From an uncultured Chloroflexia bacterium (lineage in GTDB: Bacteria > Chloroflexota > Limnocylindria > Limnocylindrales > CSP1-4), in contig CAVRHD010000007.1 of NCBI GenBank assembly GCA_963720965.1, positions 49,442 to 113,441 of the forward strand: DNA of 64,000 bases, given 5' to 3'. Position numbers and translations under genes: made by a program. The notes below the pieces were generated by a model, which ran no database searches, was not told where the DNA came from, and worked only from the letters and a program-made list of their open reading frames with translations. Of this stretch, positions 16,453 to 60,403 are shown in pieces; positions within the stretch are counted from its first letter, which is position 1; each line of letters opens with the position of its first letter.

Positions 16453-17510
16453 GGGTCACCTTGCTCAGCCCCTCGGGTCGGTCCGGACTCAAGCCCAGGC
16501 TGACTGCCACGGCCTCGGCCAGGAGCTGTCCGGGGAGGACGAGCGCGAGTGGGGTGAGGCACTCGGGCAGGTCCGCCAGGGCCGCCAGCACCAGCATCGT
16601 CCCGGAGTCGCCGGAATGCGAAGCGCCCAGCTCGGGCCCACCGATGGTCCACGGCTTGGCTCCCGCCGCGCGAGCCCGGTCGATCGCCGGGATCGATCGC
16701 GGACCCCATCGGGCCATCCGGTCGAAACACCAGCGCCGGGATGTCGGAGGCGGCCAGGGCGATCGGACCATGCTCGAAGTCGGCGCTCGAATAGCCCTCG
16801 GCGAAGACGTGCCCGGTCTCCTTCAGCTTCAGGGCGGTCTCGAGGGCCGTGGCCAGGTTGAAGCCGCGCGAGATGACGAGCGCCCGGCCCGACCCGGCGA
16901 TCGCTCCGACGAGATCGGCACCGGGACCGCCACGCCAGGCCAGCGTCGCCTCCAGCGTTTGGCGGAGCACCTCCGGGACGCGTGGCAGGTTCGAGGCGAG
17001 CGCGGAGTCCGGGAGCAGGGCAGCGACGATTCCGGCCACCGCCGCGAGCTCGGCGACATAGCTCTTGGTGGCCGCGACCGCGAGCTCGGGTCCCGCCCGA
17101 CAGGGAACCGTGAGCTGGGCGGCGGCCTCGAGCGGCGAATCGGCCGTGTTCGTGATCGCCACGGTCAGCGCTCCGCCCCGCCGGGCGGCCTCGAGGACCG
17201 CGACAAGATCGGGGCTGCGGCCGGACTGCGAGAACGCGAGGAGCAAGCTGTCCGACCAGTTGGTCGTCGCACCGTAGATCGTCGTGACCGACGGCGAGGC
17301 CAGGGACACCGGCCAGCCGAGCTGGGTCTCGATCAGGTATCGAGCGTAGATGGCTGCGTGGTCCGAGGTTCCACGAGCAACGATCGAGACCCAGCGAGGC
17401 TGGGCCGCCCGAACGGCATCGACCACGGCCGCCAGTGCAGGCGAGTCGAGGACCAGCTGGTCTTCGACCACCTTGGGGATCTCTCGAATCTCCTCGGCCA
17501 TGATTGTCAT
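16442..17510 (-). pseudogene. SIS-domain glucosamine-6-phosphate deaminase/isomerase (AgaS/NagB-II-like, two SIS domains), frameshift near 16735; 3' end overlaps nagA convergently
   Basis: 'VSIVARGTSDHAAIYARYL', 'LLAFSQSGRSPDLV', 'AITNTADSPL', 'ALVISRGFNLATALETALKLKE'. The C-terminus 'AIDRARAAGAKPWTIGGPELGASHSGDSGTMLVLAALADLPECLTPLALVLPGQLLAEAVAVSLGLSPDRPEGLSKVTLTR' lies in a second frame. Confidence 0.7.
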
Positions 17511-17626
17511 CCGGGAGATGATCGCACCCGGCTCTCAGCGGGATCTGGTCGTCGCGCCGCCCGAATTGACAAACGGCGGGATGAGGGCAGGCTAGCAATG
17601 GACCAAATGATGGAGCTTCGTGCCTG

Positions 17627-18967
17627 ATGACTGAGGGCCAATCGTTCCACGGCGCGCCGCGCGCCAGCGGCCGGCGGGACCTGCTCGTCGGCCTGGCCTT
17701 CGTCCTGGTCGTGGCCGGGATCGGACTGGCCATCGTCAAGCCGTGGGGGGACACCCCAAGGCCTGCGGCTTCGGCCGAGCCCGGCGTCGCCGCGGCGAGC
17801 CCATCTGGGGCGTCGGCAAGCGCCCCGCCGATCGCCCTGGCGACGCCCCAGCCTCACCGGCTGCCGGTTGCATTCACGGCTCCGGCGCCGCAGGGATCGT
17901 CGGCCTGGGCCGGCCTCACCTGGCGCCGCCTGGCGCCGGACGACCCGCTCGGCGCCGTCCTGACCGAGGTGACCGCCGGCGGAACGTCCATCGCGATCGG
18001 CGACATCCCGGGGACGACCTCGACGACGGTCTGGTCCTCGACCGACGCGACGCACTGGGATCCGATCGAGGCCAACACCCCGACCACCTTCTGGCCGAAC
18101 CTCTCGATCATCGGCCTGGCGGCCGTCACGGGCAGGTTCGTCGCCGTCAGCGAGATGAACGACTACCTGATGCGCGATCTCCCGCCGGTCGTGGCCTGGG
18201 CCTCGACCGACGGCCGGAGCTGGACACCGACGGAGGCCCTGCCGGTCGACCCACTCTCGATCCCGGCCAATTCCGCAACACTCGTTGCCGCCGGACCGAA
18301 CGGCCTGGTCGTGGCGACGACCGGACCCGACGCACGTCTCGCCACCTCGCCCGATGGTTCGAATTGGGTCCTCTCGCCACCGAACGTCTTACCGGCCGGC
18401 TTCGCCCTCGACGACCTCGAGGGCAGTGCGACGGGCTACATTGCGATCGGGAGCTCGACAAGGGGCGCCGGTCCGAGCCGGGCGGCCGCGCTCTGGTCGG
18501 CCGACGGCCGTCACTGGCCGAAGACGCCGACCCTCCTGCCCACATCAGCACCGGGCTCCGGATCGGCGGCGTTCTCGAACGCGCTGACGCTCACGGTCGG
18601 CGACCAGGGCATGATCGCTGCCGGGATCGGCGGCACCCTGGCCGGAGCGCTGTGGTGGCGTTCCGCGGACGGCCAGCACTGGCAGGCGCTCCCGGGGTTC
18701 CCGCCCATTGGGGTCACGAAGTGTGGCGGCGCGAGCTGCGGCCTCCAGCCGAACGGCACGCTGTTCGGGGACGGGCATCGGCTGGTCGCTCTCCGCACCG
18801 GCGCCGATGGAGTGGGCTGGGTGTCGAATGATGGCGAGCGGTGGGCGGCGCTCAGCTTCTCGGGCGACGTCCCGGATGCGCAGGCGACGCAGGCGACACT
18901 GCTGCCCGGCGGGGTCCTGCTCTCGAACGGCACGACCACCTGGTTCGGCCAGGCCGAGGGACACTGA
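17627..18967 (+). CDS. Membrane-anchored BNR/Asp-box repeat (beta-propeller) protein
   Basis: N-terminal TM anchor, Ala/Pro linker, then six S-x-D-G-x-x-W Asp-box repeats (STDGRSWT, SPDGSNWV, SADGRHWP, SADGQHWQ, SNDGERWA, STDATHWD). Intact 446 aa. Confidence 0.7.
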   Translation: MTEGQSFHGAPRASGRRDLLVGLAFVLVVAGIGLAIVKPWGDTPRPAASAEPGVAAASPSGASASAPPIALATPQPHRLPVAFTAPAPQGSSAWAGLTWRRLAPDDPLGAVLTEVTAGGTSIAIGDIPGTTSTTVWSSTDATHWDPIEANTPTTFWPNLSIIGLAAVTGRFVAVSEMNDYLMRDLPPVVAWASTDGRSWTPTEALPVDPLSIPANSATLVAAGPNGLVVATTGPDARLATSPDGSNWVLSPPNVLPAGFALDDLEGSATGYIAIGSSTRGAGPSRAAALWSADGRHWPKTPTLLPTSAPGSGSAAFSNALTLTVGDQGMIAAGIGGTLAGALWWRSADGQHWQALPGFPPIGVTKCGGASCGLQPNGTLFGDGHRLVALRTGADGVGWVSNDGERWAALSFSGDVPDAQATQATLLPGGVLLSNGTTTWFGQAEGH

Positions 18968-18987
18968 CCACTCGCGAAAGGCGCCAC

Positions 18988-21900
18988 TCAGCTGGCGCCC
19001 GCCACGGCCTCCGGCAAGGGCACGGCAATCGCCCCGAGGCCGGCCAGGATCGTCGCGGCTTCATGAGCCTCCTCGACGGCTTGGACGTCATCAGGCGCGA
19101 GGAGGATCTGTCTCGACCGCAAGGTCGTGGCGACCTCGAAGCTCGCGCCGAGCCCGCGGGCGATGCCCAGGCTCGCCTCGAGGTGAGCCCGGGCCGCCTC
19201 GGTCTCGCCGAGCTCGAGGGCACACCAGCCGAGCGTCCGCTCGAGCTGGGTTTCCTGCAGGCCCGCATCCGACAGACGCACTCGATCGAGCGTCTCCCGG
19301 GCGACCGATTTCAGCTTCGGCCGGCCGGCCGGCCAGGGCCAGGCACTCGGCGACCCGGGTCCGGGTCTCGTCGACGTACCCGGCGGCCCCGATCCGCCCG
19401 AAACGCTCGACTGCTTCAGCCAGGATGACGAGGCCTTCGTCGTGCCGGCCGGCCCGGGCGGCAACCCGCCCGAGATTGCTCGTGGCCAGGGCGATCCCGA
19501 TCTCGTAGCCGGCCGCCCGCCACACTCGGAGGGCATCTCCCAGGAGCGCCTCCGCTGCCTCGTAGTGGCCCTGGTCGGACAGGATCTCGGCCTCGTTGTT
19601 CGACTGGACCGCAGCGTTTGCCACGTCGCCGGCCCGCGTCTTCGCCTCCTTGCTCCGGCCGTACAGGGCCAGGGCCTCATCCCAGCGGCCTTCGAAATAG
19701 GCTTCGATCCCGAGATTGTTCAGGACGTTTCCCTGGCCGACGAGGTCACCCAGCTCCTCGTAGATCGGCAGGGGAAGGTCGCGATAGCGGGCCGCTGCCT
19801 CGGCATTGCCCAGGACGCCGTAGGCCGCGTGAAGGAGGTAGTACGCGTGGGCCAGGAGGGCTCGGTCACCGACCCGGTCCGCGGTGGCCGCAGCCGGAAT
19901 ACAGACCCGGACGCAGTCGGCCCAGCGACCCTGGCGAAAGCGGATCCCGGCCCGATCGAGCATGAGCCGGATGCGCAGCGACTCGACGCCGTCGCCCTGC
20001 GCCCCATCGAGCCGGTGCTGGCCCCGGGTGTACCAGGCGAGGGCCCGGCCATAGTGCCCGGCCCGCTCGCAGACGATCCCCGTCTTGCGGGCAAGCTGGG
20101 CCTGGACGAAGGCGGCCTCCGGCCCGCCGACGGCTTGCGGGGCAGGGCTCGTGGCCAGGAGGCGGCGCAGGCCGCGGGCCCGGGCATAGCCGGCGAGCGA
20201 TTCGTCGTAGCGGCCGGCCAGCTCGGCCACGTCACCACGGGCCTCGGCGACCGAGGCGACGTCGGCGGGGGCGATTGCCCGGCTGAGCGTGGCGCAGGCC
20301 AGCGCCCGCCCGTAGAGGGCTGCCGCATCGACGTTGGCGTACCGGTCACGGGCCATGTCACCGGCCCGGCGGGCATAGCGGAACGCCGGATCAGGCAGGC
20401 CGCCGCGCTCGAAATGGACCGCCAGGGCGCTCGCGACCACGTCCGTGTCCGAGCCCGCCCGGCGCTCGATCGCCGTGGCCAGCCGGGCATGGAGCGTTCG
20501 CCGGCTGGCGTTAGAGAGGCCCTCATAGGCGGCCACCCGGACCAGGTCGTGGCGGAATCGAACTCGGGTCGAGTCGACCCGGGCAACAAAGTCGTCGAGC
20601 TCGCTCCACGCACCGATGTCGTACGCGACGTCGTCGTCGTCGAGGACCTCGCCGAGCAGCTCCAGGTCGACTGTCCGGCCCAGCACCGCGGCCCGTCGGA
20701 GGAGGGCCCGGCCCCGGCCGTCGAGACGATCGATCCTGCTCGCAAGCAGGGTTTCGAGCCGATCGGGCAGGTTCTCCAGGCTGCCCTGCTCCGCTGCGGC
20801 GGTGGCCAGCTCGCGGGCGAAGAGCGGGTTGCCGGCCGCCCGCTCGATAATCGAGGCGAGGTCGGCGTCGGACAGGGCGTTCGTACCGGAGGCCGCGAGT
20901 GCCACCCGGACTACCGCCTCCGGCTCGAGCGCCGGCAGGTCGATCTGGGTGGCCCCGGCTCCGCCGAACGGACGTCCGTCGGGACGCTGGAGCCCGATCA
21001 GTAGCCACGGTTTAGAGGGTGCGGCCTCGGCCAGCGCTTCGAGCAGGGCGAACGATGCCTCGTCGGCCCAGTGAAGGTCCTCGAGGACCACCACGGCCGG
21101 CGCCCGGAGGGTCTGCCCGAGCAGCTCGACGATCGCGGCATGGAGCTGGCGACGTCGGAAGGCAGGCGCGAGATGGGTCACTTCAACGGATTCGGGAACC
21201 GAGGCCCCGATGGGGATCGCGATCAAGGGCAACCAGCCGATCAGTCCGGGCGCCAGGCCCTCGACCCATTGGCCGAGCTGCTCGCCGGCGGCCGGAGGCT
21301 CCGTCTCGTCGGCGATCCCGGCCAGGTCGCGCAAGCCGGCCTGCACCCCGGCGTAGGGCGTTCCTTCCTCGGCTGGGGTGAACCGCACGACAAGGTGCGA
21401 GGCGATCCGATCGTCCGCCATCAGCTCCTGAACGAGACGAGATTTGCCGGCGCCCGGGTCGCCCGCGATCGAGACCACCCGGCCGTTGCCGAGGGCCGCC
21501 TCGCCGAGGGCGCCGGTGAGCAGCCGCAGCTCGGCATCCCGCCCGGCGAGAGGCAGGCGGGCGGGGGTCCGAGCATGCCGGCCCACGAGGCGGCCGATCC
21601 GGTACGGCACGACCGGGTCGCGCTTGCCCTTCGGGGTGAACGCGGGCAGCGGCTCAGTCTCGAACTCGACCGCCGAGCGGGACAGCACGTCGGCCGTCGC
21701 GAGCAGCTCGCCGGGCGCGGCCCGGGCGGCGATCCGGGCGGCCAGGTTGGTCGTATCGCCCATCGCCGTGTACGTCCGGCGAGACGGCGCCCCGAGATCC
21801 CCGGCGAAGACCGGTCCGCGGTTCACCCCGGCCCGCAGCCGGAGGCCCGCTGCCTCGGGTGAGTCGAGAATCTCGCGCAGGACCCGGAGCATCCGCTCCT

Positions 21901-22804
21901 CGTCCTGGCCGGTGGCCACTGGAGCGCCCGCCGCCAGGAACAGGGTTACTCCGTCCTCGGTCGCGTCCGTGCCGAGGAGGGTTACGCGATGGCGATCGGC
22001 CGCCTCCGCCACGGTTCGATAGAGCGCGTCGAGATCGGCCACGACAGCGTCCGGTTCATCAGCGAGCCGGGCGTCAAGGCTGCCAGCGAGGACGAAGGCG
22101 ATCGTGGCCAGACGATTTTCCCCTTCCAGCCCGCCTCCTGCTCCGCCCAGGAATGGGCGCAGCGGGGCAGGCAGGAGACTGCTCAGGTCGACCTTCGGCG
22201 GGGCGACCCGGGTCGGGGGCACCACCGGGCCGGGACGGATGTGGCGCAGGAGCCGGCCGGCCGGATGGACCGCTCCGAGCCAGCCCTGGTCGATCGAATT
22301 GGCCGTCCGCTGGTCGAGCAGAATCTGGCCGGCCTCGGCGGCTCGCTCGAGCCGGACCATCTCGGTCGTTGTCGGGCCGGCCACGAACAGGCCGCGTGTC
22401 CCGGTACCGGCGAGCACCAGGTCGACTGGCCCACTGGCGAGCCCGATCGAGACCCGCAGCGTCACTGCACCGGCAGAGGTGGCGATCGAGCCGCGGGCAG
22501 CGAACCACTGGCGGACCGCCGCCGCGGCCTGAACGGCCCGCGACGCGGACGCCTGGCCATCGAACATGACGACCAGGGCGTCGCCGGCAAAGATCAGGAC
22601 GTCTCCGCCACGCGCCTCGAGCTCGGCGACCAGCGCCGTCAGGACTCCGCCAATGAGGCCCGCTACCTCTTCCGCACCGGCCCGACCCCGACTGGCCAGT
22701 CGCTCGGACAAGCGGGTGAAGCCGGCAATGTCGGCGAACAGGAGGGTGCCCTCGACCCGCCTGTGCGTCGCCAGCGGATCGGCGCCCAGCCACTCGACCG
22801 CCAT
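18988..22804 (-). pseudogene. Tandem class III nucleotidyl cyclase domains + AAA/NB-ARC ATPase + TPR (STAND-type regulator), one frameshift inside a (GGCC)n run near 19320-19340
   Basis: First cyclase domain 'LLFADIAGFTRLSERL...FAGDALVVMF'. Second 'ATIAFVLAGSLDA...GVNRGPVFAGDLG...AMGDTTNLAARI'. Walker A 'GDPGAGKSRL'. TPR region. The true C-terminus '...LQETQLERTLGWCALELGETEAARAHLEASLG...' is read in the 18988..19680 frame. ATG at 22804 (MAVEWLG) is the preferred start; 22984 is possible. Confidence 0.75.
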
Positions 22805-23874
22805 GCGCGGCGCGTACGGCCCGACCTCAACCTCTCCTGGCTGGGCGGATCGGTGCGGTCTGGTGCCTTCCGGCACCGGTATCTCGTCCCTCACCGATGC
22901 AGTGTCGCAAAGATGACAACCGGTGCACCAAAACACCGCTGGACAAACGTCCCATCCGGACCGTACGGTTCCGGGACCGGCCACGGGCGCGGGCCGGTCC
23001 CGGGACGTGCGTGAAAGTGGGGACGCCCGCCGAGGTCAGCCGCACATCATCGTCAGCGCGGCCGCCCAGGCGCCGCGGTTGGAGGTTCGATCATCGTGGC
23101 GTCCCATCGCCTGTTCCCGCGCGCCCTCGTCCTGGTCGTCTCGGGCCTGCTCGCGGCACTTCCAGCCGGCACCGGGCTGGCTGCGGTCGTCCCTGCCCAG
23201 GTCGTCCGAGCCGACAGCCCCGAGTACCCCACCTGGGCCGGCGGCTTCAACGGGGGTTCGTCCTACGCCGCCGCCCCGGCCGGCGTCGTCAACCTCGCGG
23301 TCCCCGCGGTCGCCGGCGAACAGCCGGCCAACCCGGACCCGGCCTCGGTCACGGCGACGGCGGGGACGGCAGGCATCCAGGGCGCCGCAATCCTCCAGTC
23401 CGACCTGACTGGGTCGACCCTGGCCACGACGCCAATCGACTCGCTGGGCCTCGAGAACCTGCCCGTCCAGATTCCCTTGTCGACGCTCCCATTCAGCCGG
23501 TCAACCTCACCGAAGAGCTGGCAGGACCTGCTCAGCTCGACCGTGCTCGCCGGCGTGCCCCTGCAGAACGTCACCTGGCAGCAGGTCCGCCAGCTGGCGC
23601 CCGCCCCGGCCGGCCTCCACTCGATCGATATGGGCGACGTGGACTGGTCGGGCAGCGTGTTGGCGAACCTGCCCCTCGCCGCGTTCACCTTCGGGGGAAC
23701 GGACATCACCACGATCCAGATCCCCCTCCAGCCAGGCGAGCCGAGCACGGATACGTCCGCGGCCGATCGCTGGTGCTACGCCCTCAACCAGGCCCAGGCA
23801 GGCAGCTGCCCGAGCGCGGCCAGCCTGGCCGGCAAGTCGCTCCTGGGGGTCAGCATCCAGGGCGCCTCCCTCCA

Positions 23875-31796: not shown

Positions 31797-31872
31797 GCGG
31801 GAGTAACTCAGCTGGCAGAGTGTCTGCTTCCCAAGCAGAATGTCGCGGGTTCGAATCCCGTCTCCCGCTCCA
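31797..31872 (+). tRNA. tRNA-Gly (anticodon CCC), CCA encoded
   Basis: GCGGGAGTAACTCAGCTGGCAGAGTGTCTGCTTCCCAAGCAGAATGTCGCGGGTTCGAATCCCGTCTCCCGCTCCA folds as a canonical cloverleaf: 7-bp acceptor GCGGGAG/CTCCCGC, anticodon stem TCTGC/GCAGA with loop TTCCCAA, T-loop TTCGAAT. Confidence 0.9.
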
Positions 31873-46902: not shown

Positions 46903-46949
46903 GACGGCTTGGCCGTCTCGGCCCAGGCCAAGGCGCGTAGGCTGCCGAC

Positions 46950-49752
46950 GTGACCCAGCCAGGGGCGACCCACACCGCGACGTTCCTGATGACCGACATC
47001 GCGGGGAGCACGCGCCTGTGGGAGGAGCAGCGCGAGGCGATGGTCCTCGCCCTGGCGGCCCACGACGACTTGCTGCGAGCCGCCGTCGAGGAGGCCGGCG
47101 GCACCGTCTTCAAGACGACCGGGGATGGGCTCCTTGCGGCCTTCGAGCGCCCCGGAGCTGCCGTCCGGGCGGCCATTGCGGGACAGCAAGCCCTGCAGGA
47201 TCACCCCTGGCCTACCACCACCCCGCTCCTGGTCCGGATGGCGATCCACGCCGGCGATGCCGAGCTCCGCAACGACGACTACTTCGGACCGTCGCTCAAC
47301 CGCGTGGCCCGGGTGCTCGCGATCGGCCACGGCGGGCAAGTCCTCGTGTCCGCGGCGGCCGCGGCGCTCGTCGCCGACGACCTGCCGGCGGGCGCGGCGC
47401 TGTTCGACCGCGGCGAGCACCATCTCAGGGACCTCACCCGGTCCGAGCACGTCTACCAGCTGACCGCACCCGGCCTCACCACCGACTTTCCAGCGCTTCG
47501 CTCAGGCGCGGCACCCACGAACCTGCCGGCCGACCTGACCACCTTCATCGGTCGGAGCCGGGAAGCGGCCGAGATCCGGGGCATCCTCGCAACCCACAGG
47601 TTCGCGACGCTCGTCGGGGTTGGCGGCACCGGCAAGACGCGTCTCATGCTCCACGTCGCCGGCGAGCTGTCTGACCAACACGTCGATGGGGCGTGGCTGG
47701 TCGAGCTCGCTCCGCTGCGCGAGCCCGAGCTCGTCGCCTCCGAGGTCGCCCGGGCCCTGGGTGTCCAGGTTTCGCCCGGCCCAGCCGGCCATCGTCGCGC
47801 TCACTGACTTCCTTCGGAGCAAGGACCTGATCCTGCTGCTCGATAACTGCGAGCACCTGATCGAGGCAGCAGCCGGCCTCGTCGAGCATCTTCTTGCGAG
47901 CATGCCGCACCGTGCGGGTGCTGGCGACAAGCCGCGAAGCACTCGGGGTCCCGGGTGAGGCCACCTATCCGGTGCCCTCGTTGGCCCTGCCCGAGACGAT
48001 GGACCAGCTCGACCTCGAGGCGATCGCGGCGACCGAGGCCGTGAGCCTCTTCGTCGAACGGGCCACGACCACGTTGCCCTCGTTCCGGCTCGATGACTCC
48101 AACGCGGCCAGCGTGGTCGAGATCTGCCGGCGGCTGGACGGCATCCCGCTGGCCCTGGAGCTGGCCGCCGCCCGGGTCAACGTCCTGTCGGCGGCCGAGA
48201 TCGCCCAGGGCCTGGGCGATCGATTCCGCCTCCTGACCGGCGGCCGGCGGACCGCCGTGCCCAGGCAACAAACCCTCCAGGCGCTCATCGACTGGAGCTG
48301 GGACCTGCTGACCGAGGCCGACCAGCGGCTCCTCGGCCGGCTGTCCGTCTTCACCGGCGGCTGGACGCTGGACGCCGCGGCCGGGGTGGCCGGCGACCAG
48401 GATGATCCGGCGGCGGCGCCGTCCGGCGCAGCCCGTCTCGAAACGCTCGACGGCCTGGGCCGCCTCGTCGATCGCTCCCTCGTCGTCGTGACCCCCGCCG
48501 AGACCACCCGCTACGGCATGCTCGAGACGATCCGCCAGTACGCAAACGACCGGCTGGTCGCCAGCGGCGAGGCGGCCGCCCGGCGGACCCGGCACCTCGC
48601 CTGGTTCCGGCGCCTGGCGGCCGACGCGTCGACCGGCATCGCCGGCCCCGACATGGCGACCTGGCTGGGCCGGGTCGAAGTCGACCTCGACAACCTGCGG
48701 ACCGCGCTGGATTGGGCCTACGAGACCGACGTGCCAATAGCGCTCCGAGATGTACGTCGGCCTCGGCGCCTACTGGCGACTGCGCGGCCTCGGCTCGGAG
48801 GGCGTCGACCGGATGGCCGAGGCGATCGACGTCCTTCGGCGCTGGCGATCGGAGCCGTCGGACGATGCCCGAGGCTGAGCGGACCCTCCTCGCTGCGCGG
48901 GTGATGGTCGCGGCGTTCAACATGTCCGGCTACGCAGGCTGGAGTGCCGTTGGCTCGATCGGCGACGAGACTATGGCGGTCGCACGCGCCTCGGGTGATC
49001 CGGCGGCGATCGTCGATGCCCAGGTCCTGGCCCTTCAGACGGAGATCATGACCCGTGGTGGACGTAACACCGAAGGACTTCGGGCCGCCGCCCTGGAGGC
49101 GCTCCAGCTCGCCACGAATCTCGACGACCCACTCCGGCAGTCCACGGTCCTGACCGGCCTGGCGATGATCGATGCCCAGGTTGATCCCGACGCCGCGGAG
49201 GGATGGCTCGAGCGGGCGGCTGCTGCCGCCGAACGGAGTGGCAATCCAGCCGCGATCGCAGGCATCTTCCAGATGCGCGGCCGGGTCGCCAGTCGCGCCG
49301 GTCGAGAGGTCGAAGCCCAACGCTGGTTCCGGGAAGCGGCCGAGCGCTATGGGGCCGTTGGCGACATCCGGTTCACGATGTCCTCCCAGAGCGAGCTCGC
49401 CCACGCCATGCGCCGAGCCGGCGCTATCGACGAGGCCGACGCGGAGTACCGCCAGACGATCATGGGCTGGCAGCGCATCGGCAACCGCGGGGCCGTGGCC
49501 AATCAGCTGGAATCGATGGCCTTCACCGCGATCGCGCGGGGCTCCGGGGCGAGGGCGGCGCGGCTGTTGGGGGCCGCCGAAGCGTTGCGCGAGGCCTCGG
49601 GGGATCCGATGACGGTCGACGAGCGCGGGGAGTACGACGCGGAGGTGGACCGCCTGCGCGGGCTCCTCGACCCGCCGGACCTGGCCGACGCCTGGGCCGA
49701 TGGCCGGCGGCTGACCTCGGATCAGGCCGTGGCGCTCGCCGTCTCCGTGTAG
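46950..49752 (+). pseudogene. Class III nucleotidyl cyclase + AAA/NB-ARC ATPase + TPR (STAND-type), about 3 frameshifts (~47790, ~47900, ~48740)
   Basis: Cyclase 'ATFLMTDIAGSTRLWEE...FKTTGDGLLAAF...MAIHAGDAELRNDDYFGPSLNRVARV...RGEHHLRDLTRSEHVYQL'. Walker A 'GVGGTGKTRL'. 'ILLLDNCEHL'. 'ICRRLDGIPLALELAAARV'. C-terminal TPR block in the 48712..49752 frame. Confidence 0.75.
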
Positions 49753-51566: not shown

Positions 51567-51608
51567 CCCACGGGCGGGCGGCCGGCACATTGCCACGGCC
51601 GCACTTCT

Positions 51609-52070
51609 TCAGCCGGAGGGCCGATCACCGCGCGGCCCCTGCCGGCCGTCGCTGTGGATCAGGACCCCGCCTGGGCGTAGCAAACGGCGCTCCTGCTCGT
51701 GGATCTCGCGGCGGATGCGTTCCGTCGCGGGCCGATAGGCGGCGCGGAACTCAGGCGAACCGAATAGGCGGCTCTCGTGGACCGCGTCGAAGGAACCTGT
51801 TGCGAGGAAGTCGAGCGAACCCGGGACGCCAAGGTCGACCAGATGATGGACGAACGCCTCGCCGTCCAGGTCGCCAACATCGATCCCGACCGGTTCCGCC
51901 CCGAGCTCCAGGAGGAGCCGGCACATCCACGGCTCGAACTCGGCGGTCCGCGCGCCGGTGATCGGCGAGCGGCTGGAGTTCGACCCGCAGGCGATATCGA
52001 GGACCGACTTGCCACGGACCGCCGAGAAGGGGTCGAAGGCATTTGCCAGGCGGCCGATGAGCTCGGTCAT
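51609..52070 (-). CDS. Class I SAM-dependent methyltransferase-like protein (short, 153 aa)
   Basis: Motif I-like 'VLDIACGSN' and post-I 'RLLRPGGVLIHSD'. Weak assignment. Confidence 0.45.
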   Translation of the reverse strand: MTELIGRLANAFDPFSAVRGKSVLDIACGSNSSRSPITGARTAEFEPWMCRLLLELGAEPVGIDVGDLDGEAFVHHLVDLGVPGSLDFLATGSFDAVHESRLFGSPEFRAAYRPATERIRREIHEQERRLLRPGGVLIHSDGRQGPRGDRPSG

Positions 52071-52263
52071 GATCTTGCCGAGTCGCGGTTCCGCCCCGAT
52101 CTTCGCGCCCAGATGATGGCGGGCGTCGAGCTCGTGGAGAGCACGGCCGAGGGCCTCGCGGTCGGATGGCGTCCGGCCGAGAGCCGCGAGCCGTGGAAGG
52201 TGGTCAGGCGCCGTAGAGGAGCTCCGCTGTCCAGGATGACCGTCGCTGGTTCAGGATGGCACG

Positions 52264-52862: not shown

Positions 52863-53573
52863 CTAGTGGCCGACGATCTCCGGAATGGTGGCGCTCAGCT
52901 GCACGATCCGGCCACCGATCGGGACGGCGTCCGGGTACTCCTCGCGATGGGCGAGGCCGACGTCCGACAGGCCCAGCCCCATGGCCGCCGAGTCGGTGAT
53001 GAACAGGTACGGCTTGTAGCCGATGGTGTCGCGGATCGTGTTCTTGAGCAGTCGGTGGGCGACGGTCACGGTCGGCCCGAGCAGGTCGCTCCCGGAGCCG
53101 ACGCTCTGGCGCACGGCCAGTCCGCGATGCAGGATCACCTTCAGGTCGAGGTGGGCGACGGCGGGACAGGCGATGCAGACATGGTCATTCGCCGGGATGG
53201 CGGCCGTCCGTCGATCGATGAACGACTGGTACATCGCCCCGATTCGATCGAGCACCTCTTCGCCCTGCCCGTCGAGGCTGCCCGCCGGAGCCGCGGCGAA
53301 GACTGCGTCGCCTTCGAGCTTGACCAGGCTGAAATCGGGCTCGACGCCCTCGATCACCGCGTCGAGCAGCGCGCCGAGGACCCCGTACGCGGCCGGAATG
53401 CCAGCGCTGAAGTCCACGCCATGCTCGTGCTCGACGCCGGTCATGAAGCCGGTGTAGCCGGAGATGTCGGCGAGCAGCAGGTAGCGCTCCCCAGCCGATG
53501 GCTCGGCGGCCGGTGCCACGGATCGATCGGCCTGGTCCACGGACGCTCCTGCCTTCCCGGTGCGCACCCCCAC
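52863..53573 (-). CDS. DUF2652-domain protein (nucleotide-cyclase-like fold), divergent from the downstream cyclase gene
   Basis: 'LLLADISGYTGFMTGVEHEHG...KLEGDAVFAAAP...GPTVTVAHRLLKNT' parallels the cyclase-like core of the paralog at 57219..58313 (LLIADISGYTSYLAGVELDHS...KLEGDAAFVFAP...GPDVIIVHRLLKNE). Confidence 0.65.
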   Translation of the reverse strand: MGVRTGKAGASVDQADRSVAPAAEPSAGERYLLLADISGYTGFMTGVEHEHGVDFSAGIPAAYGVLGALLDAVIEGVEPDFSLVKLEGDAVFAAAPAGSLDGQGEEVLDRIGAMYQSFIDRRTAAIPANDHVCIACPAVAHLDLKVILHRGLAVRQSVGSGSDLLGPTVTVAHRLLKNTIRDTIGYKPYLFITDSAAMGLGLSDVGLAHREEYPDAVPIGGRIVQLSATIPEIVGH

Positions 53574-53672
53574 GGCTAGAGTACGGCTCGTGGAGACATA
53601 CGACCAGCCTGGATCCCGTCGAAATGGGGCCCGTTGTACCCTGCGATCTGATCAACCGTCCCGAGGAAACCG

Positions 53673-56600
53673 GTGAACTGCTCGATCTGCGGATCGCTCA
53701 ATCCGCCGGGGGTCAAGTTCTGCGAGGAGTGCGGCTCGCGGCTCGGGACGACTTGCGCCTCGTGCGGCGCCGCGCTGAGTTCGAGCGCCAAGTTCTGCGG
53801 TGAATGCGGGGCTGCGGCGGCGTCGGCAGCGCCGGCTTCAGCTGCGCACCCGGATCACGACCAAGCCCAGGCTCCAGTTGCCGAGCGCCGCCTCGTCTCG
53901 ATCCTGTTCGCCGATCTCGTCGGCTTCACCTCCCTGGCCGAAGGCCGCGACGCCGAGGACACCCGCGAGCTGCTGAGCCGCTACTTCGAGCTTTCGCGCG
54001 ACGTCATCGCCCGCTATGGCGGCACGGTCGAGAAGTTCATCGGCGATGCCGTCATGGCGGTCTGGGGAGCACCGACGGCCCACGAGGATGACGCCGAGCG
54101 AGCAGTCCGAGCGGCGCTCGAGCTGATCCACGCGGTCAAGTCGCTTGGCCCGGAGATCGAGGCGCGGGCGGGCGTCCTGACCGGCGAGGCGGCGGTCACG
54201 ATCGGGGCGACGAACGAGGGCATGGTCGCGGGCGATCTGGTCAACACGGCGTCGCGGCTCCAGAGCGTCGCCCAGCCGGGAACCGTGCTCGTCGGCGAGG
54301 CGACCCAGCGGGCTGCGTCGGCCGCGATCGCCTTCGAGCAGGCCGGCGACCAGGTGGTCAAGGGCAAGACCGCCCCTGTCCCGGCCTGGCGTGCGTTGCG
54401 GGTCGTTGCCCAGGTCGGCGGTCGCAACCGCTCGGAGACGCTCGAGGCTCCATTCGTCGGCCGGGACGACCAGCTTCGCCTGCTGAAGGACCTCTTCCAT
54501 GCCACGAGCCGGGATCGCCACGCCCGGCTGATCTCGGTCACCGGACCTGCCGGGATCGGCAAGAGCCGCCTCGCCTGGGAGTTCCGCAAATATGAGGACG
54601 GCCTGGTCGAACGTGTCTGGTTTCACGACGGTCGCTCCCCAGCGTACGGCGAGGGGATCAGCTTCTGGGCGCTGGGCGAGATGGTCCGGCGGCGGGCCGG
54701 GCTCGTGGAGACCGACGACGAGGACACTACCCGGACCAAGGTCGCCGAGACCCTGGCTCTCCACGTTCCCGATCCGGCCGAGCGGCGCTGGATCGAATCG
54801 GCGCTGCTGACCCTCCTGGGGGTCGAACCATCCACGACCGTTTCGGAGCAGCTCTTCGCGGCCTGGCGGACCTTTTTCGAACGTCTTGCGACGACGGCGC
54901 CAGTCGTCCTGGTCTTCGAGGACTTCCATCACGCCGACACCGGCCTGATCGACTTCGTCGACCACCTCCTCGAATGGAGCCGGAACGTCCCGATCTACGT
55001 CGTCACGCTGGCTCGGCCCGAGCTCCTCGAGCGCCGACCCGACTGGGGCGCCGGCAAGCGGAGCTTCATCGCGCTCTATCTCGAGCCGCTGCCAGAGCCG
55101 GCCATGCGCGAGCTCCTGGCCGGGCTCGTGCCCGGGTTGCCCAGTTCCGCCGTCAAGGCAATCGTCGAGCGGGCCGGCGGGATCCCGCTGTACGCCGTGG
55201 AAACCGTCCGGATGCTTGTGTCCGAGGGCCGCCTGAGCCTCGAGGGAGATTGCTATGTCCCGATCGGCGACCTGACCAACCTGGCCGTGCCCGAGACGCT
55301 GACGGCACTGATTGCCAGCCGCCTCGACCGGCTACCGGCCGACGATCGGGCCCTGGTCTCGGACGCGGCCGTTCTCGGCCAGAGCTTCACGATCGCCGGC
55401 CTGTCGGCCGTCTCCGGGATCGACCAGGGCGAGCTCGAGCCACGCCTCCTGGCCCTCGTCCGCCGGGAGCTCCTGACAGTCGAGACCGATCCCCGCAGCC
55501 CTGAGCGCGGCCAGTACTCGTTCGTCCAGGCGCTGATCCGTGAGGTCGCCTACAACACTCTGGCCAAGCGTGACCGGAAGTCGCGCCATCTCGCCGCGGC
55601 CCGGTTCTTCGAATCGCTCGGCACAGACGAGATTGCCGGCGTCCTGGCCGGCCACTACCTGGCTGCCCACGGAAACGCAACCGATGGGCCGGAAGCCGAA
55701 GCCCTGGCCGGCCAGGCCCGGATTGCCCTCCGAGCGGCGGCCGAACGAGCCATCGCCCTGGGCAGCTACGGCCAGGCCCTTCGCTTCTATGAGCAGGCCC
55801 TCACCGTCGCAACCGACCCGATCGAGGTCGCGGAGCTGCACGAGCGGGTGGGTGAGGCAGCCACCATCGCCGGCCGCCACGAGATCGCCGAGGACGAGCT
55901 TCGGCGGGCGATCGAAGCGCGCCATGCCCTGGCGGATCGTCCCGGCGTCGCCCGCGCCACGACCGCCCTGGGCCGGGAGTTGATCGCCGTGTTCCGGGTG
56001 GCGGACGCGTTGGCCCTGCTCGAGCCTGCCTCGCTGGAGTTCGCCGATCTCGAGACCGAACCGGTGGGCGTTGACCTGCTCAGCCAGCTTGCCCGGGCAT
56101 TGTTCCTGTTGGACGAGACCACCCGCGCGCTCGAGGTCGCTGAACGGGTCCTCAACCTGGCCGAACGGGCCAACCTCCAGGCGATCATCGCCGACACCCT
56201 CGTTACCCGGGGAACCGCGCTGGCTCTCGTCGGCCGGGCCTACGAAGGCCTCGGGGTGATCAAGGCGGGCCGCGAACTGGCTGAGTCGATTGGGCTCAAC
56301 ACGACCGTCCTGCGGGCGATCAACAACATCGTGTTCGTCGGCGGACCTCGGGATCCCCGGTCGGCCCTGGCGCTGTGCCGGGAGGGGATCGCCATCGCCC
56401 GGCGGCTCGGCCAGCGGACATGGGTCCCGGGTCTGATCGACGGCGTCGCCGAAGGAGGCCTGCGTACAGGCGAATGGGCGCAGGCGCTGGCTGAGATCAT
56501 CGATGCTCTCGACGACGATTGGGAACCGGTCGACCGAGCCTGGTTCTTGATCGATGCGACGATCCACTGGGCGGTGCGGGGCGATGCCCTCGATGACCGG

Positions 56601-57204
56601 CTTGACGAGCTGTCGGCCCTGGTCAGGGACTCGGACGATCAGCAGACCCTGGCCAATGCGGCGCACGCGGCCGGGTTTGTCGAGCTCGCACGGGGAGACT
56701 TCGTGGCGGCCCGGGCGTCCTGGCACCGGGCCACCTCGCTCTCCATCGGGCAGCTCCTGTATGCCGGGCCGCGCGCAGCCCGGGCGGCGCTGTGGGCGGG
56801 CGACCGTGCCGGAGCCAGTGCCGATCTCGAGGCTCTCGATGAAGCCGGACTTCACGGGCCGGCCGTGGAGGCTGATCGGCGCACGATCCGGGCCGGCATC
56901 GCCGCGCATCGACGGCCGGACCACCGAGGCGCTCGCCTTGTATCGCGAGTCGTTGCGTGCATGGCGCGACCTGGGCCTGCCCTGGGATGAGGCCCTGTGC
57001 GGGATCGACATGGCGACCCTCCTCGACCCGGACCTCCCGGAAGTCAAGGCGGCTGCCGATACTGCGATGGAGATCCTCACCCGGCTGGAGGCGGCGCCGT
57101 TCGTCGCGCGGCTGGAGGCCGTCCGCGCTCGCGCTTCGTCCGAGCGCCCGCTGCCCGTGCCCGAGTCGAGCCCAATAGCAACCTCGTCACAGATCCGCGG
57201 CTGA
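53673..57204 (+). pseudogene. Double zinc-ribbon + class III nucleotidyl cyclase + AAA/NB-ARC ATPase + TPR (STAND-type), one frameshift near 56905
   Basis: N-terminus 'CSICGSLNPPGVKFCEECG...CASCGAALSSSAKFCGECG'. Cyclase 'VSILFADLVGFTSLAE...FIGDAVMAVWGAP...TGEAAV...GDLVNTASRLQ'. Walker A 'GPAGIGKSRL'. 'LVFEDFHHAD'. TPR block. Real C-terminus '...EALALYRESLRAWRDLGLPWDEALCGIDMATLL...' read in the 56554..57204 frame. Confidence 0.75.
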
Positions 57205-57218
57205 GGTCGGGTCCGGTC

Positions 57219-58313
57219 ATGCTCCAGCCTGAGCCGGTCGTCCTGCTGATCGCCGACATCTCGGGCTACACGAGCTACCTCGCCGGGGTCGAGCTCGATC
57301 ACTCCCAGGACATCCTGGCCGACCTCGTCGGCACGATCGTGACCGCGCTCCGGCCGACGTTCCGGCTGGCCAAGCTCGAGGGCGATGCCGCCTTCGTCTT
57401 CGCGCCGGCAGGCAAGCTCGACGCCTCGATCCTGCTCGATACGGTGGAGCGCTGCTACTTCGGCTTTCGCCGCCGGCGGCGCGACGTGAGCCAGGCCACG
57501 TCGTGCACCTGCAACGCATGCGTGCGGATCCCCGACCTGAACCTGAAGTTCGTGGTCCACCAGGGTGAGGCGCTCCGGCACCGGATTGCCGGCCGCGATG
57601 AGCTCCTGGGGCCGGACGTGATCATCGTCCACCGGCTGCTGAAGAACGAGGTGGTCGAGCGGCTGGGCATCCACGCCTATGCCCTGTTCACCCAGGCCAG
57701 CCTCGACGCTGTCGCCGTCGATCCCGCCGCGCTCGGGATGGTGCCCCTGGCCGAGACCTACGAGTTCGTGGGCGAGATCGGGACGTGGGTCCTCGACCTC
57801 GAGCGGCGCTGGCAGGAGGAGGAGACCAGGCGGCGGATCCTGGTCACGCCCAAGGCCGCCTGGTTGACCTTCAGCGTGGACACCAAGGCCCCGCCCCAGC
57901 TCGCCTGGGAATTCATCACGGCGCCCGGCCGGCGCCCGAGCTGGCAGGTCGGCGTGACCCAGGTGCTCCTCGTCGACAGCCCCGGCGGTCGGCGCGCCGT
58001 GGGCGCCACGAACCACTGTGTCCACGGCGCGAATGGCGGGGTGACCGAGGAGATCGTGGACTGGCGGCCGTATGACTACCTGACCGATCGGGGAACCCAC
58101 CCGACGCCCGGAGGGCCGGTCAAGATGCTCGAGACGATCGAGCTCGAGCCGACCGCCGAAGGGACGAGGATCCAGTTCCGATATGCCCCGCCGACCTCGG
58201 CCCGGGAGCGGACGATCGTCGCCGGCCTCGAGGGCGACTACCGCGAGCTTTTTGCCGTCTGGCTGGCCCGCCTGGCCGAGCTGATCGACGCGGAGGTGGC
58301 GGACCAGGCCTAG
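57219..58313 (+). CDS. DUF2652 (cyclase-like) N-terminal domain fused to an SRPBCC (START/Bet v1/polyketide-cyclase-like) C-terminal domain
   Basis: ATG 15 nt after the stop of the cyclase-STAND gene. N-terminal half paralogous to 52863..53573. C-terminal ~150 aa ('WEFITAPGRRPSWQVGV...IQFRYAPP') has SRPBCC character. Confidence 0.6.
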   Translation: MLQPEPVVLLIADISGYTSYLAGVELDHSQDILADLVGTIVTALRPTFRLAKLEGDAAFVFAPAGKLDASILLDTVERCYFGFRRRRRDVSQATSCTCNACVRIPDLNLKFVVHQGEALRHRIAGRDELLGPDVIIVHRLLKNEVVERLGIHAYALFTQASLDAVAVDPAALGMVPLAETYEFVGEIGTWVLDLERRWQEEETRRRILVTPKAAWLTFSVDTKAPPQLAWEFITAPGRRPSWQVGVTQVLLVDSPGGRRAVGATNHCVHGANGGVTEEIVDWRPYDYLTDRGTHPTPGGPVKMLETIELEPTAEGTRIQFRYAPPTSARERTIVAGLEGDYRELFAVWLARLAELIDAEVADQA

Positions 58314-58316
58314 CCG

Positions 58317-58830
58317 CCCGGCCGAGCGAGATCCATGGCCATGAACACGACCACGGGAATGAGTGCCTCCGGGAAATCCCTCCGGCGGGTCGACGAACTC
58401 GAAGCCGGCCGCCTGGTAGATCCGATGGGCGCCGGTCATCGTGTGGTGGCTGTCGAGGATGATCCGCCGGTAGCCCGCCGCCCGGGCGGACTTGACCAGC
58501 GCCTCGACCAACCTTGAGCCGACCCCCTGCCCGCGGAAGACCGGCCGGACGTACATCCGCTTGAGCTCGCCCGTCGTCGCGCTGACCGGCTTGAGCGCGA
58601 CACAGCCGGCCGGCTGGCCGTCGGACAGGGCGAGCAGCAGGCGCCCGCCCGGCGGGGCGTAGACGCCCGGTAGCGTCCGGCCAGCTCCTCTTCGACACCC
58701 TGAATGTTGGGGCGTCCTCGGCGTCGCCGTCGATGGCCAGGGCCCAGCCGAGGTACTCGTGGAGGAGTGTCCGGACGTCGTCTGCCTGCGCCGGCGTGCT
58801 CAGTCGACGACTTCGATCAGCCGCCGCCCC
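58317..58830 (-). pseudogene. GNAT-family N-acetyltransferase, 2-3 frameshifts; 3' end convergently abuts or overlaps the SRPBCC gene
   Basis: 'LPGVYAPPGGRLLLALSDGQPAGCVALKPVSATTGELKRMYVRPVFRGQGVGSRLVEALVKSARAAGYRRIILDSHHTMTGAHRIYQAAGFEFVDP' (Q/R-x-x-G-x-G/A motif A) plus the N-terminal 'ADDVRTLLHEYLGWALAIDG' in another frame. Boundaries approximate. Confidence 0.5.
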
Positions 58831-60403
58831 GGCCGGCGCCCGTTCGTCGAGGCTGTCCCATACCGTCTTGAGCGGATCCTGCTGGCCAAGCGCGAACAGC
58901 GCGATCGCCCCGCCGATCACGCCGACGAAGCCGCACAACAGGAATGCGCCGTGCAGGCCGGCCAGGTAGGCGTCGATGTACGGTCGGACATCGGCGCTGC
59001 CGATCGTCGTGGCCACGTCGGCGAACGATGGCGTGCCCACGGCAACAAGGACCGCTCGGAATGCATTGATGGCCGCCGTGGCCTCGGCGGCCGGCAGGCC
59101 GGCTACCGACGCCGAGTAGGTCGTGATCGCGATCTGGGCCACGACCACGGTAACGATCACGACCCCGATCCGCGACCCAACCGAGATCGAGGCTTCGTTC
59201 AATGCCGCGGCCGTGGCCGGCAGTCCCTGGGGCACGCTGGCGAAGATGATCGCCGTGCGCACGGTCGTGGCGACCACGAAGCCGGCTCCGATGACCAGGC
59301 AGGGCAGGACGAATCCGACGTAGGACGACGATTCGCCGGTCACCGACCACAGGACGAAGTTGCCCAGTCCAACGAAGATCACCCCGCCGCCAACCAGCCA
59401 GCGTGGCGTTACCCGGCCGAGCAGGAAGCCGGCAACCGGGCCGGCCAGCACGAGTGCGGCGAAGAGCGGAGCGAGGGCTGCCACGGCGGCCACCGGACCA
59501 TAGCCAAGGACGAGCCGGAAGTAGAGCGGCAGGTTGAGCATCGCCGCGGTCTGCGAGATCGCGATGACGACGCCCACGAACAGGGCGACCGAGACGCGTC
59601 GGCGGACGATACCGGCTGTCGATGCTGCCCGCGCCCGTCCCAGGCGCGAGTAGCCAATCGCGAGGACCGGTCCCCCGATGATCAGGGCCAACCGGAGCGG
59701 CGTGTTCACGCCGTCGCCGAACCAGGTCAGTCCGACGGTGAGGGTGATGATCCCGAACGCCCAGACCGCGACGCCGATGACGAGCGGACGCTCAGCCAGC
59801 GAAGGCCGTCGCAGCTCGAGGACTCGCCTCGAGGCCAGCCGAATGGCGACCAGGCAGGCCAAGATCGCGGCAACGAAGGCCGGCCAGTCCTGGCCCGGGA
59901 TCAGCTGGAGCAGGATCGGGGCGGCGGCACCGGCTGCACCGTAGGCGCCATAGGCGATCCCGATCGCGGTGGCCCGGACGGGACCGCGATAGCTCGTCGC
60001 AACGAGGGCAAGCGACACGGGAATGACGAAGGCGGCACTCGCGTGCCCTACGAGTCGGGCGATCAGGAAGAGCGGTCCGACCGGCACGAACATGGCGACC
60101 AGGCTGCCGAGCAGCTCGCCAGCCAATCCGCCCAGGATGATCGGGGTGGCTCGTCTGGAGTCTCCGATTGCGCCGCCCAGCAGGATCAGGCCGGACGCGC
60201 TGAGCGAAGCCAGCAGGACGACCGTCTCGAGCTGGGGATTTTCCCGGACGGCAGCCTGGATCGAGGGCAGGGCCGGGACTCCAGGCCTGGGGATCCAGGG
60301 CCGCCGCGAACAGAGCGACCGATCCGGCCAGCAGCGCGCCCTTCGCAACGGGATCGACGAACAGGTCGCCGATGAACGACGGGAGCTTCCGTTGGCGGGT
60401 CAC
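58830..60403 (-). pseudogene. MFS transporter (12-14 TM), one frameshift near 60255; runs in frame into the GNAT gene in this assembly
   Basis: N-terminus 'MTRQRKLPSFIGDLFVDPVAKGALLAGSVALFAAALDP' (59792..60403 frame), then a long TM-rich region in the 58120..60348 frame. 3' boundary with GNAT uncertain. Confidence 0.55.

Follow-up and report, generated by a model that had tools for sequence, protein, structure and literature searches.

We analyzed a 64,000-nucleotide stretch of DNA (hereafter the window) from an uncultured Chloroflexia bacterium (GenBank assembly GCA_963720965.1, contig CAVRHD010000007.1) and focused on a locus that encodes three class III cyclase-fold proteins: a standalone DUF2652 protein, a large zinc-ribbon cyclase-STAND protein, and a fusion of a DUF2652 domain with an SRPBCC domain. 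A preliminary description made from the sequence alone had assumed an actinobacterial host. The host lineage is instead a Limnocylindria-like Chloroflexota metagenome-assembled genome (MAG), and the closest loci, from a one-genome-per-species collection, belong to Candidatus Limnocylindrales / Limnocylindria and 'uncultured Chloroflexia' MAGs. The region has a G+C content of about 70% and a uniform composition. The open reading frames (ORFs) on which the description was built are present where it placed them.

The standalone DUF2652 gene lies on the minus strand at 52863..53540, as delimited by its Pfam match and the starts of its homologs; the longest ORF extends to 53573. This frame (52863-53573) matches the DUF2652 profile (PF10851) with 74.1 bits against a gathering cut-off of 22.1 (E 1.2e-20, Pfam). 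Homologs with 70-88% identity and a length of about 226 residues begin at the equivalent of GTG 53540, which is probably the conserved start of the gene and would give a product of 225 residues. With this start, the divergent intergenic spacer to the STAND gene (53541..53672, by sequence reading) measures 132 nt and not the 100 given previously. Residues D36, K85, D89, H131, C133, C136, and R174 (numbered along the 236-residue ORF from 53573) are invariant, and the Cys-rich element of the protein has the form HxCxxC.

The second DUF2652 gene, at 57219..58313 on the plus strand, encodes 364 residues and was assigned by Pfam and homologs. Its cyclase-fold domain (57219-57818) matches PF10851 with 104.2 bits (cut-off 22.1, E 5.6e-30, Pfam), and as the preliminary description had proposed, an SRPBCC domain follows (approximately 57867-58250), which matches PF10604 (Polyketide_cyc2) with 52.7 bits (cut-off 27.4, E 7e-14) and PF08327 (AHSA1) with 22.8 bits (cut-off 22.1). 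The C-terminal 150 residues of the protein are related to SRPBCC / START / Bet v 1 domains by both profiles, and this part is modeled, in places with low confidence, as a beta-sheet (strands 264-322) and a long C-terminal helix (338-363). The domain differs from Polyketide_cyc2 and AHSA1/YndB domains in being fused to a cyclase-fold domain and in carrying invariant HCxHG and DWRPxDY motifs, which our searches linked to no characterized protein. The start at 57219 (MLQPEP...) is conserved among homologs. The two DUF2652 proteins share 37% identity over 191 residues (E 6e-35), a similarity well outside what chance would give, and are thus paralogs, as had been suggested from their common motifs.

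Our searches gave 3896 homologs of the fusion protein. Every one of the 120 listed has this domain architecture, with 65-99% identity; these come from MAGs labeled Chloroflexota, Actinomycetota, and Methylomirabilota, and beyond the host lineage the family includes Terrabacter, Jiangellaceae, Acidimicrobiia, and Methylomirabilota. Such identity among the listed homologs, across MAGs of several phyla, argues strongly that DUF2652 is under strong purifying selection. The DUF2652 cyclase-like domain as a whole forms 2717 clusters at 50% identity (E<=1e-3). In the fusion, D13, K52, D56, C79, C96, C98, C101, E128, and H138 are invariant, as are H266, C267, and H269 of the SRPBCC domain, and R139 is nearly so. 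Its Cys-rich element reads CxCxxC, and this invariant Cys cluster and the HCxHG motif suggest a putative metal site.

Between the paralogs lies the STAND gene (53673..57204, plus strand), delimited by Pfam and by its orthologs. It encodes a single polypeptide that combines a cyclase domain, a P-loop STAND ATPase, and a repeat sensor, in an order kept in the orthologs listed: a zinc ribbon (DZR, 53679-53810), a class III cyclase domain (53892-54371; PF00211, 73.7 bits), an AAA_16 domain (54450-54974; PF13191, 72.3 bits), and TPR-type repeats up to the C-terminus (TPR_12, 27.9 bits, slightly under the cut-off). In the cyclase domain, the metal Asp, Lys, Asn, and Arg residues are all canonical, and the motifs FADLVGFT and KFIGDA are present. 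Orthologs (among 120 listed matches) are 65-78% identical and 1165-1195 residues long. The order of cyclase, AAA_16 STAND ATPase, and helical repeats resembles the cyclase-STANDs of Mycobacterium tuberculosis (Rv0386/Rv1358/Rv2488c; cyclase-ATPase-helix-turn-helix), and the protein partially matches TIGR03903 (TOMM kinase/cyclase fusion) with 208 bits, far under the cut-off of 705.75. In contrast to the Rv0386 type and TIGR03903, its N-terminus carries a double zinc ribbon and its C-terminus a TPR array instead of a LuxR helix-turn-helix or a kinase domain.

As sequenced, the STAND frame stops at 56990 and yields a shortened product of 1105 residues with a spurious end. The +1 frame continues to 57204 and supplies the 99 conserved C-terminal residues, which match the orthologs in L024 and L028 (L numbers denote sampled loci), and orthologs read uninterrupted through the point of the break, GIAAL(E/D)GR...YREAL.AWRDLGLAWDEALCG. 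Comparison with related sequences located the shift at a single extra G at 56906..56906 (plus strand), GCCGC[G]CATCGAC, which L001 (98.3% identical to the window) also has and which neither P0511 nor the JGI contig L002 shares. Removing it produces an ORF of 1176 residues that is colinear and 97% identical with P0511 (intact, 1176 residues, same 90% cluster). Dozens of 1-nt indels distinguish the window from L001, and a second cyclase-STAND gene of the window (46941-49752, plus strand; cyclase, P-loop NTPase, TPR; 79-86% identical to L086_3) shows at least four frame changes against its ortholog, which split it into at least five reading-frame segments. Because of these many indels and the damage to the second gene, an assembly indel is the likeliest explanation for the extra G. 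We considered a pseudogene or a programmed frameshift and dropped both, given the absence of the extra G from L002 and P0511 and the many other indels in the assembly. The state of the second gene itself points to assembly indels or to a pseudogene. The L086 ortholog of this second gene lies immediately beside a standalone DUF2652 gene in convergent orientation, so that this pair, too, is loosely syntenic.

The junction of the STAND gene with the fusion gene depends on this repair. With the extra G removed, 14 nt separate the STAND stop at 57204 from the ATG at 57219, in agreement with the 15-bp junction described before, while in the frame as sequenced, which stops at 56990, this junction does not exist. 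A GAGG lies 10-14 nt before the ATG. Because of the short spacer and the GAGG, the proposed co-transcription of the two genes is plausible, and judging from the sequence they are probably co-transcribed in the window strain. A single 742-residue ORF on the minus strand (58120-60348) corresponds to two L001 genes, an MFS transporter and a GNAT acetyltransferase, the latter of which ends in L001 4 nt inside the stop of the fusion gene. Given the 1-2-nt indels between the assemblies at 58369, 58678-58679, 58699, 58801, and 58819, the merged ORF is probably an assembly artifact.

The preliminary description had noted that the shared DUF2652 motifs resemble the core of nucleotidyl cyclases, and AlphaFold models of both proteins bear out a cyclase-like fold. 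For each model, the 50 best PDB matches listed by Foldseek were all class III cyclases, with E of 1e-8 to 1e-9 and a probability of 1.0. The standalone model (mean predicted local distance difference test score, pLDDT, 83.7) had CyaC, Cya2, and Rv1900c as its top matches (E 1e-9), and the N-terminal domain of the fusion model (pLDDT 77) matched class III cyclases with E 8.5e-9; CyaC (S. platensis), Cya2, Rv1264, and Rv1900c were the best structural matches of both models, with target-normalised TM-scores of about 0.6-0.78. The motifs ADISGYT, KLEGDA, and HRLLKN quoted in the preliminary description are invariant in both families (alignments A1, A2, and A3), as is the metal-binding Asp pair, D13/D56 in the fusion and D36/D89 in the standalone protein. 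Aligning the fusion with the STAND cyclase domain by hhalign places ADISGYT on FADLVGFT, with D13 as the first metal Asp, and KLEGDA on KFIGDA, with K52 as the substrate Lys and D56 as the second metal Asp; E128 takes the purine-specifying position, I135 the Asn site, and R139 that of the transition-state Arg. DUF2652 thus shares FxDIxGFT-like and KxxGD motifs with canonical soluble class III adenylyl/guanylyl cyclases. It differs from them in sequence (10-20% identity), in the Glu at the purine-specifying position, and in an insertion consisting of an extra helix and a Cys-rich element with a Cys/His cluster; its cyclase activity is putative. Going by its predicted fold, we place DUF2652 within the class III cyclase superfamily as a soluble, divergent lineage with putative activity.

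The link to cyclases is not new. DUF2652 was tied to class III cyclases in 2016, with the residues D,D / K,E / R and no Asn, an Asn that is also missing from some active cyclases such as Rv1900c, and the same survey listed one fusion of DUF2652 with a polyketide cyclase domain (U1IMS0, 385 aa) (Ramakrishnan et al. 2016, PMC4886424). JGI annotates fusion-type proteins as 'class 3 adenylate cyclase / YndB with AHSA1/START domain'. The cyclase link and the fusion architecture are therefore already in the literature and in database annotations, and the statement that the arrangement had not been described is only partly true; the neighborhood with a zinc-ribbon cyclase-STAND is absent from that survey. 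Relative to the survey, the host belongs to a Chloroflexota lineage outside its coverage, and the fusion form is a large, very conserved subfamily here and not a single case. The M. tuberculosis proteins Rv2561/Rv2562 discussed there belong to the same PF10851 family, are soluble with a standalone form of about 225-245 residues, and likewise keep the D,D metal ligands, the K,E pair, and the Arg, with the Asn gone (PMC4886424). Our literature search for SRPBCC-cyclase fusions, Limnocylindria cyclases, and Rv2561/Rv2562 biochemistry returned nothing relevant, and the fusion profile matched no sequence in the PDB.

We sampled the gene neighborhoods of 80 species-level fusion loci (1.1 Mb of flanks), 80 metagenome loci of the standalone gene (0.31 Mb of flanks), and 8 loci centered on STAND orthologs. 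Neighbor clustering identified the zinc-ribbon cyclase-STAND as the commonest shared neighbor family of the fusion. A close STAND homolog (75-86% identity in the cyclase domain, 47-72% elsewhere) was found within 10 kb in 10 of the 80 species-level loci and directly adjoined the fusion in 5 of the 61 whose flanks reach 1 kb or more on each side. Five close copies fell within 500 bp (76 kb of exposure), as against five in the remaining 1031 kb; conversely, the fusion adjoined the STAND in two of the eight STAND-centered loci. The 120 listed STAND matches comprised one protein per large contig, so the ortholog appears to be close to single-copy; two such genes would then come within 10 kb of each other by chance in less than about 1% of genomes (roughly 0.6% for an unlinked single-copy pair in a 3.5-Mb genome). 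With all sources pooled, the two genes adjoin in four orientations: STAND then fusion (window, L001, and L002), fusion then STAND (L003, L006, L007, and L008, one syntenic group), convergent (L028, L037, and L169, one group), and divergent (L167).

The complete arrangement is far rarer. A STAND gene bracketed by two DUF2652 genes, as noted in the preliminary description, occurs only in the near-identical relatives of the window, L001 and L002. The sensor/effector module that had been proposed for the fusion gene right after the STAND is at best a loose association that recurs. In the locus counts, all three genes lie together only in the window, L001, and L131, the last with a different order; the nearest other relatives, L005 and L089, have two divergent, adjoining DUF2652 genes with no STAND between them, and L034 has two in tandem. 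In the sampled loci we did not find the three components occurring together in most genomes that carry them. The standalone gene adjoined a close STAND homolog in 2 of its 80 loci (L106 and L131), the only ones to repeat the divergent arrangement of the window. Its neighbors were instead MsrA (18 loci), histidine kinases mostly of the GAF type (12), assorted cyclase-STANDs (11), and glyoxalase-fold proteins (10). The enrichment of DUF2652 near cyclase-STANDs that had been anticipated is thus seen for the specific ortholog and not for cyclase-STANDs of any kind, which are no denser near DUF2652 than across the window as a whole. An apparent 4.5-fold excess of any STAND in the first 500 bp beside the fusion was downgraded, because this bin necessarily contains the nearest gene and because the window itself has four STANDs in 64 kb.

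Several side observations concern these neighborhoods. Loci of the standalone gene (L085-L164) recurrently show a one-strand order of a GAF histidine kinase (sometimes with a response regulator), MsrA, and the standalone DUF2652 gene. The MsrA neighborhood hints at a redox or oxidative-stress link of this paralog, which also has the invariant HxCxxC. We had considered the neighboring kinases as cyclic nucleotide monophosphate (cNMP)-binding kinases and dropped this idea, since the domain was found only in L090, where a cNMP_binding histidine kinase adjoins the standalone gene, and the others checked are GAF kinases. Small single-domain cNMP_binding proteins are encoded near the zinc-ribbon cyclase-STAND in L167 (19574-19990, about 6 kb away) and L172 (13549-13968, adjoining), and a standalone 143-residue SRPBCC gene lies beside it in L171 (region 17324-21533). 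In the actinobacterium Terrabacter sp. (L041, 6681-9644), the fusion is divergent from a large ATP-binding regulator of the AAA_16 ... GerE (LuxR) type, a STAND whose output is DNA binding and not a cyclase.

The explanation to which we give slightly better than even credence is that DUF2652 proteins are ligand-regulated soluble cyclases within a dense cyclic-nucleotide network, and that the STAND/fusion neighborhood is facultative and not an obligate three-gene system. The DUF2652 proteins would be soluble, dimerize like other class III cyclases, and turn a nucleoside triphosphate into a cyclic nucleotide. In the fusion, the C-terminal SRPBCC pocket may bind a hydrophobic small molecule and so gate the fused cyclase. 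The STAND protein would act separately, as an ATP-switch sensor that has a cyclase output of its own. Their proximity would then reflect shared membership in the very dense cyclic-nucleotide repertoire of Limnocylindria-like Chloroflexota. The small cNMP-binding proteins of L167 and L172, the cNMP-binding kinase of L090, and the GAF kinases fit such a network. In our reading, the link between the fusion and this particular STAND ortholog is real and facultative, present in perhaps 10-25% of genomes, with no obligate system.

A number of observations weigh against this explanation. By hhalign, the match of DUF2652 to a canonical cyclase domain has little statistical weight (E 0.002, probability 14%), PF00211 matched neither DUF2652 protein at E<=0.01 (Pfam), and the transition-state Asn/Arg pair is incomplete, with the Arg kept (in HRLLKN) and the Asn replaced by Ile or Val. 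Our literature search on DUF2652 turned up computational work only and no biochemical study or assay. In the SRPBCC domain, model confidence is low at residues 240-283 (pLDDT <50), and no ligand is inferable. As to the neighborhood, the linkage counts come from collected flanks and not from an unbiased genomic background, the linkage is missing in about 88% of fusion loci and in six of the eight STAND-centered loci, and collapsing syntenic groups leaves only two independent adjacent cases in the species-level set. The window also contains four STAND NTPase genes in 64 kb, three of them with cyclase domains, so that adjacency to some cyclase-STAND is expected by chance.

This last point leads to the alternative that three independent genes became neighbors by chance in genomes that are saturated with cyclase-STANDs and have a fluid gene order, which we regard as possible and clearly less probable. 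Besides the density in the window, L168 has five STAND genes in 23 kb; fusion flanks contain about 3.3 STANDs of any type per 100 kb and standalone flanks a similar number, which is not above the window, and the roughly 13% of fusion genes that adjoin some STAND are about what this density predicts. The lack of an intervening STAND in the closest relatives L005 and L089, and the MsrA genes and GAF histidine kinases that are the usual neighbors of the standalone gene, are also in line with chance. However, a specific ortholog present about once per genome lies within 10 kb of the fusion in well more than the expected share of species, its adjacency recurs in four orientations while the remaining flanking genes all differ, and no other neighbor family is shared as commonly. 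Class III cyclases work as dimers, and DUF2652 could be a pseudo-cyclase or regulatory partner that forms heterodimers, either with its paralog or with the cyclase domain of the STAND protein, comparable to the C1/C2 pair of mammals or the alpha/beta pair of soluble guanylate cyclase, with the SRPBCC domain feeding a ligand signal into the STAND output. The replacement of the Asn that stabilizes the transition state would suit such a role, as would the cyclase-domain genes of several types that adjoin the fusion in L006-L008, L014, L045, L058, L067, and L082 and the mutually adjoining DUF2652 paralogs in L005, L034, and L089. We nevertheless consider it unlikely: both paralogs keep all metal, Lys, and Arg residues without the complementary degeneration of obligate heterodimers, and most DUF2652 genes have no adjoining cyclase gene.

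STAND NTPases are frequent in defense systems, and the STAND cyclase domain matches the PADLOC PycC models (best E 1.2e-18), which would be compatible with an anti-phage function in which a STAND sensor and cyclase effector act with accessory cyclase-like proteins, as in Avs, Pycsar, or CBASS. These matches are limited to the generic class III cyclase domain, though, and neither DUF2652 protein matched a PADLOC model. The locus encodes no cNMP-sensing effector, its G+C content is uniform, no mobile-element gene or flanking repeat was present among the genes and repeats examined, and the STAND family is conserved over many species like a core signaling gene, all of which makes a defense role very improbable. 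There is also a small chance that the fusion, the standalone protein, and the zinc-ribbon cyclase-STAND form a dedicated multi-cyclase module, in which SRPBCC would detect a hydrophobic ligand and relay this to the STAND switch, either by way of dimers that mix cyclase domains or via a nucleotide product common to the proteins. In that case, DUF2652, which has an unusual Lys-Glu pair, no Asn, and a Cys cluster, might make or sense a non-canonical nucleotide messenger, and the adjacency in four orientations would be the footprint of the module.

The remaining features of the window concern the surroundings of the three genes. In the divergent spacer (53541..53672), a consensus scan gave no sigma-70-like promoter and no terminator, and there was no Rfam match; the sole Rfam match in the window is a tRNA gene (31797-31869, plus strand). 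A repeat search found only the inverted paralogous coding segments of the DUF2652 genes: 64-nt and 73-nt inverted repeats with 77% complementarity, within 53270-53481 and 57242-57423 (the 5' coding parts of the paralogs), which flank the STAND gene. Speculatively, these segments could mediate inversion and might relate to the varied orientations in other genomes. The two further STAND genes of the window are one at 3-2678 (plus strand; NB-ARC and a MalT-like TPR region), which is cut by the window edge, and one of 1297 residues at 19091-22984 (minus strand; Guanylate_cyc in two stretches, AAA_16, TPR). A 694-bp segment (51567-52260) is missing from L001; on its minus strand lies a small ORF (51609-52070) that has no Pfam match and includes the methyltransferase-like motif VLDIACGSN. 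Homologs of this ORF are found near the fusion in L010, L067, and L077.

As evidence for a system, the locus is weak, the STAND association being facultative. Its main value is that it supplies a well-defined and highly conserved candidate with which DUF2652 could be tested biochemically for the first time. This large and strongly constrained family is present in M. tuberculosis, and the SRPBCC fusion offers a concrete route to both its product and its ligand. If DUF2652 proteins are active, the class III cyclases would gain a ligand-gated branch. For the Limnocylindria-like Chloroflexota, the unusually dense set of cyclase-STANDs bears on environmental sensing by abundant soil and freshwater bacteria.

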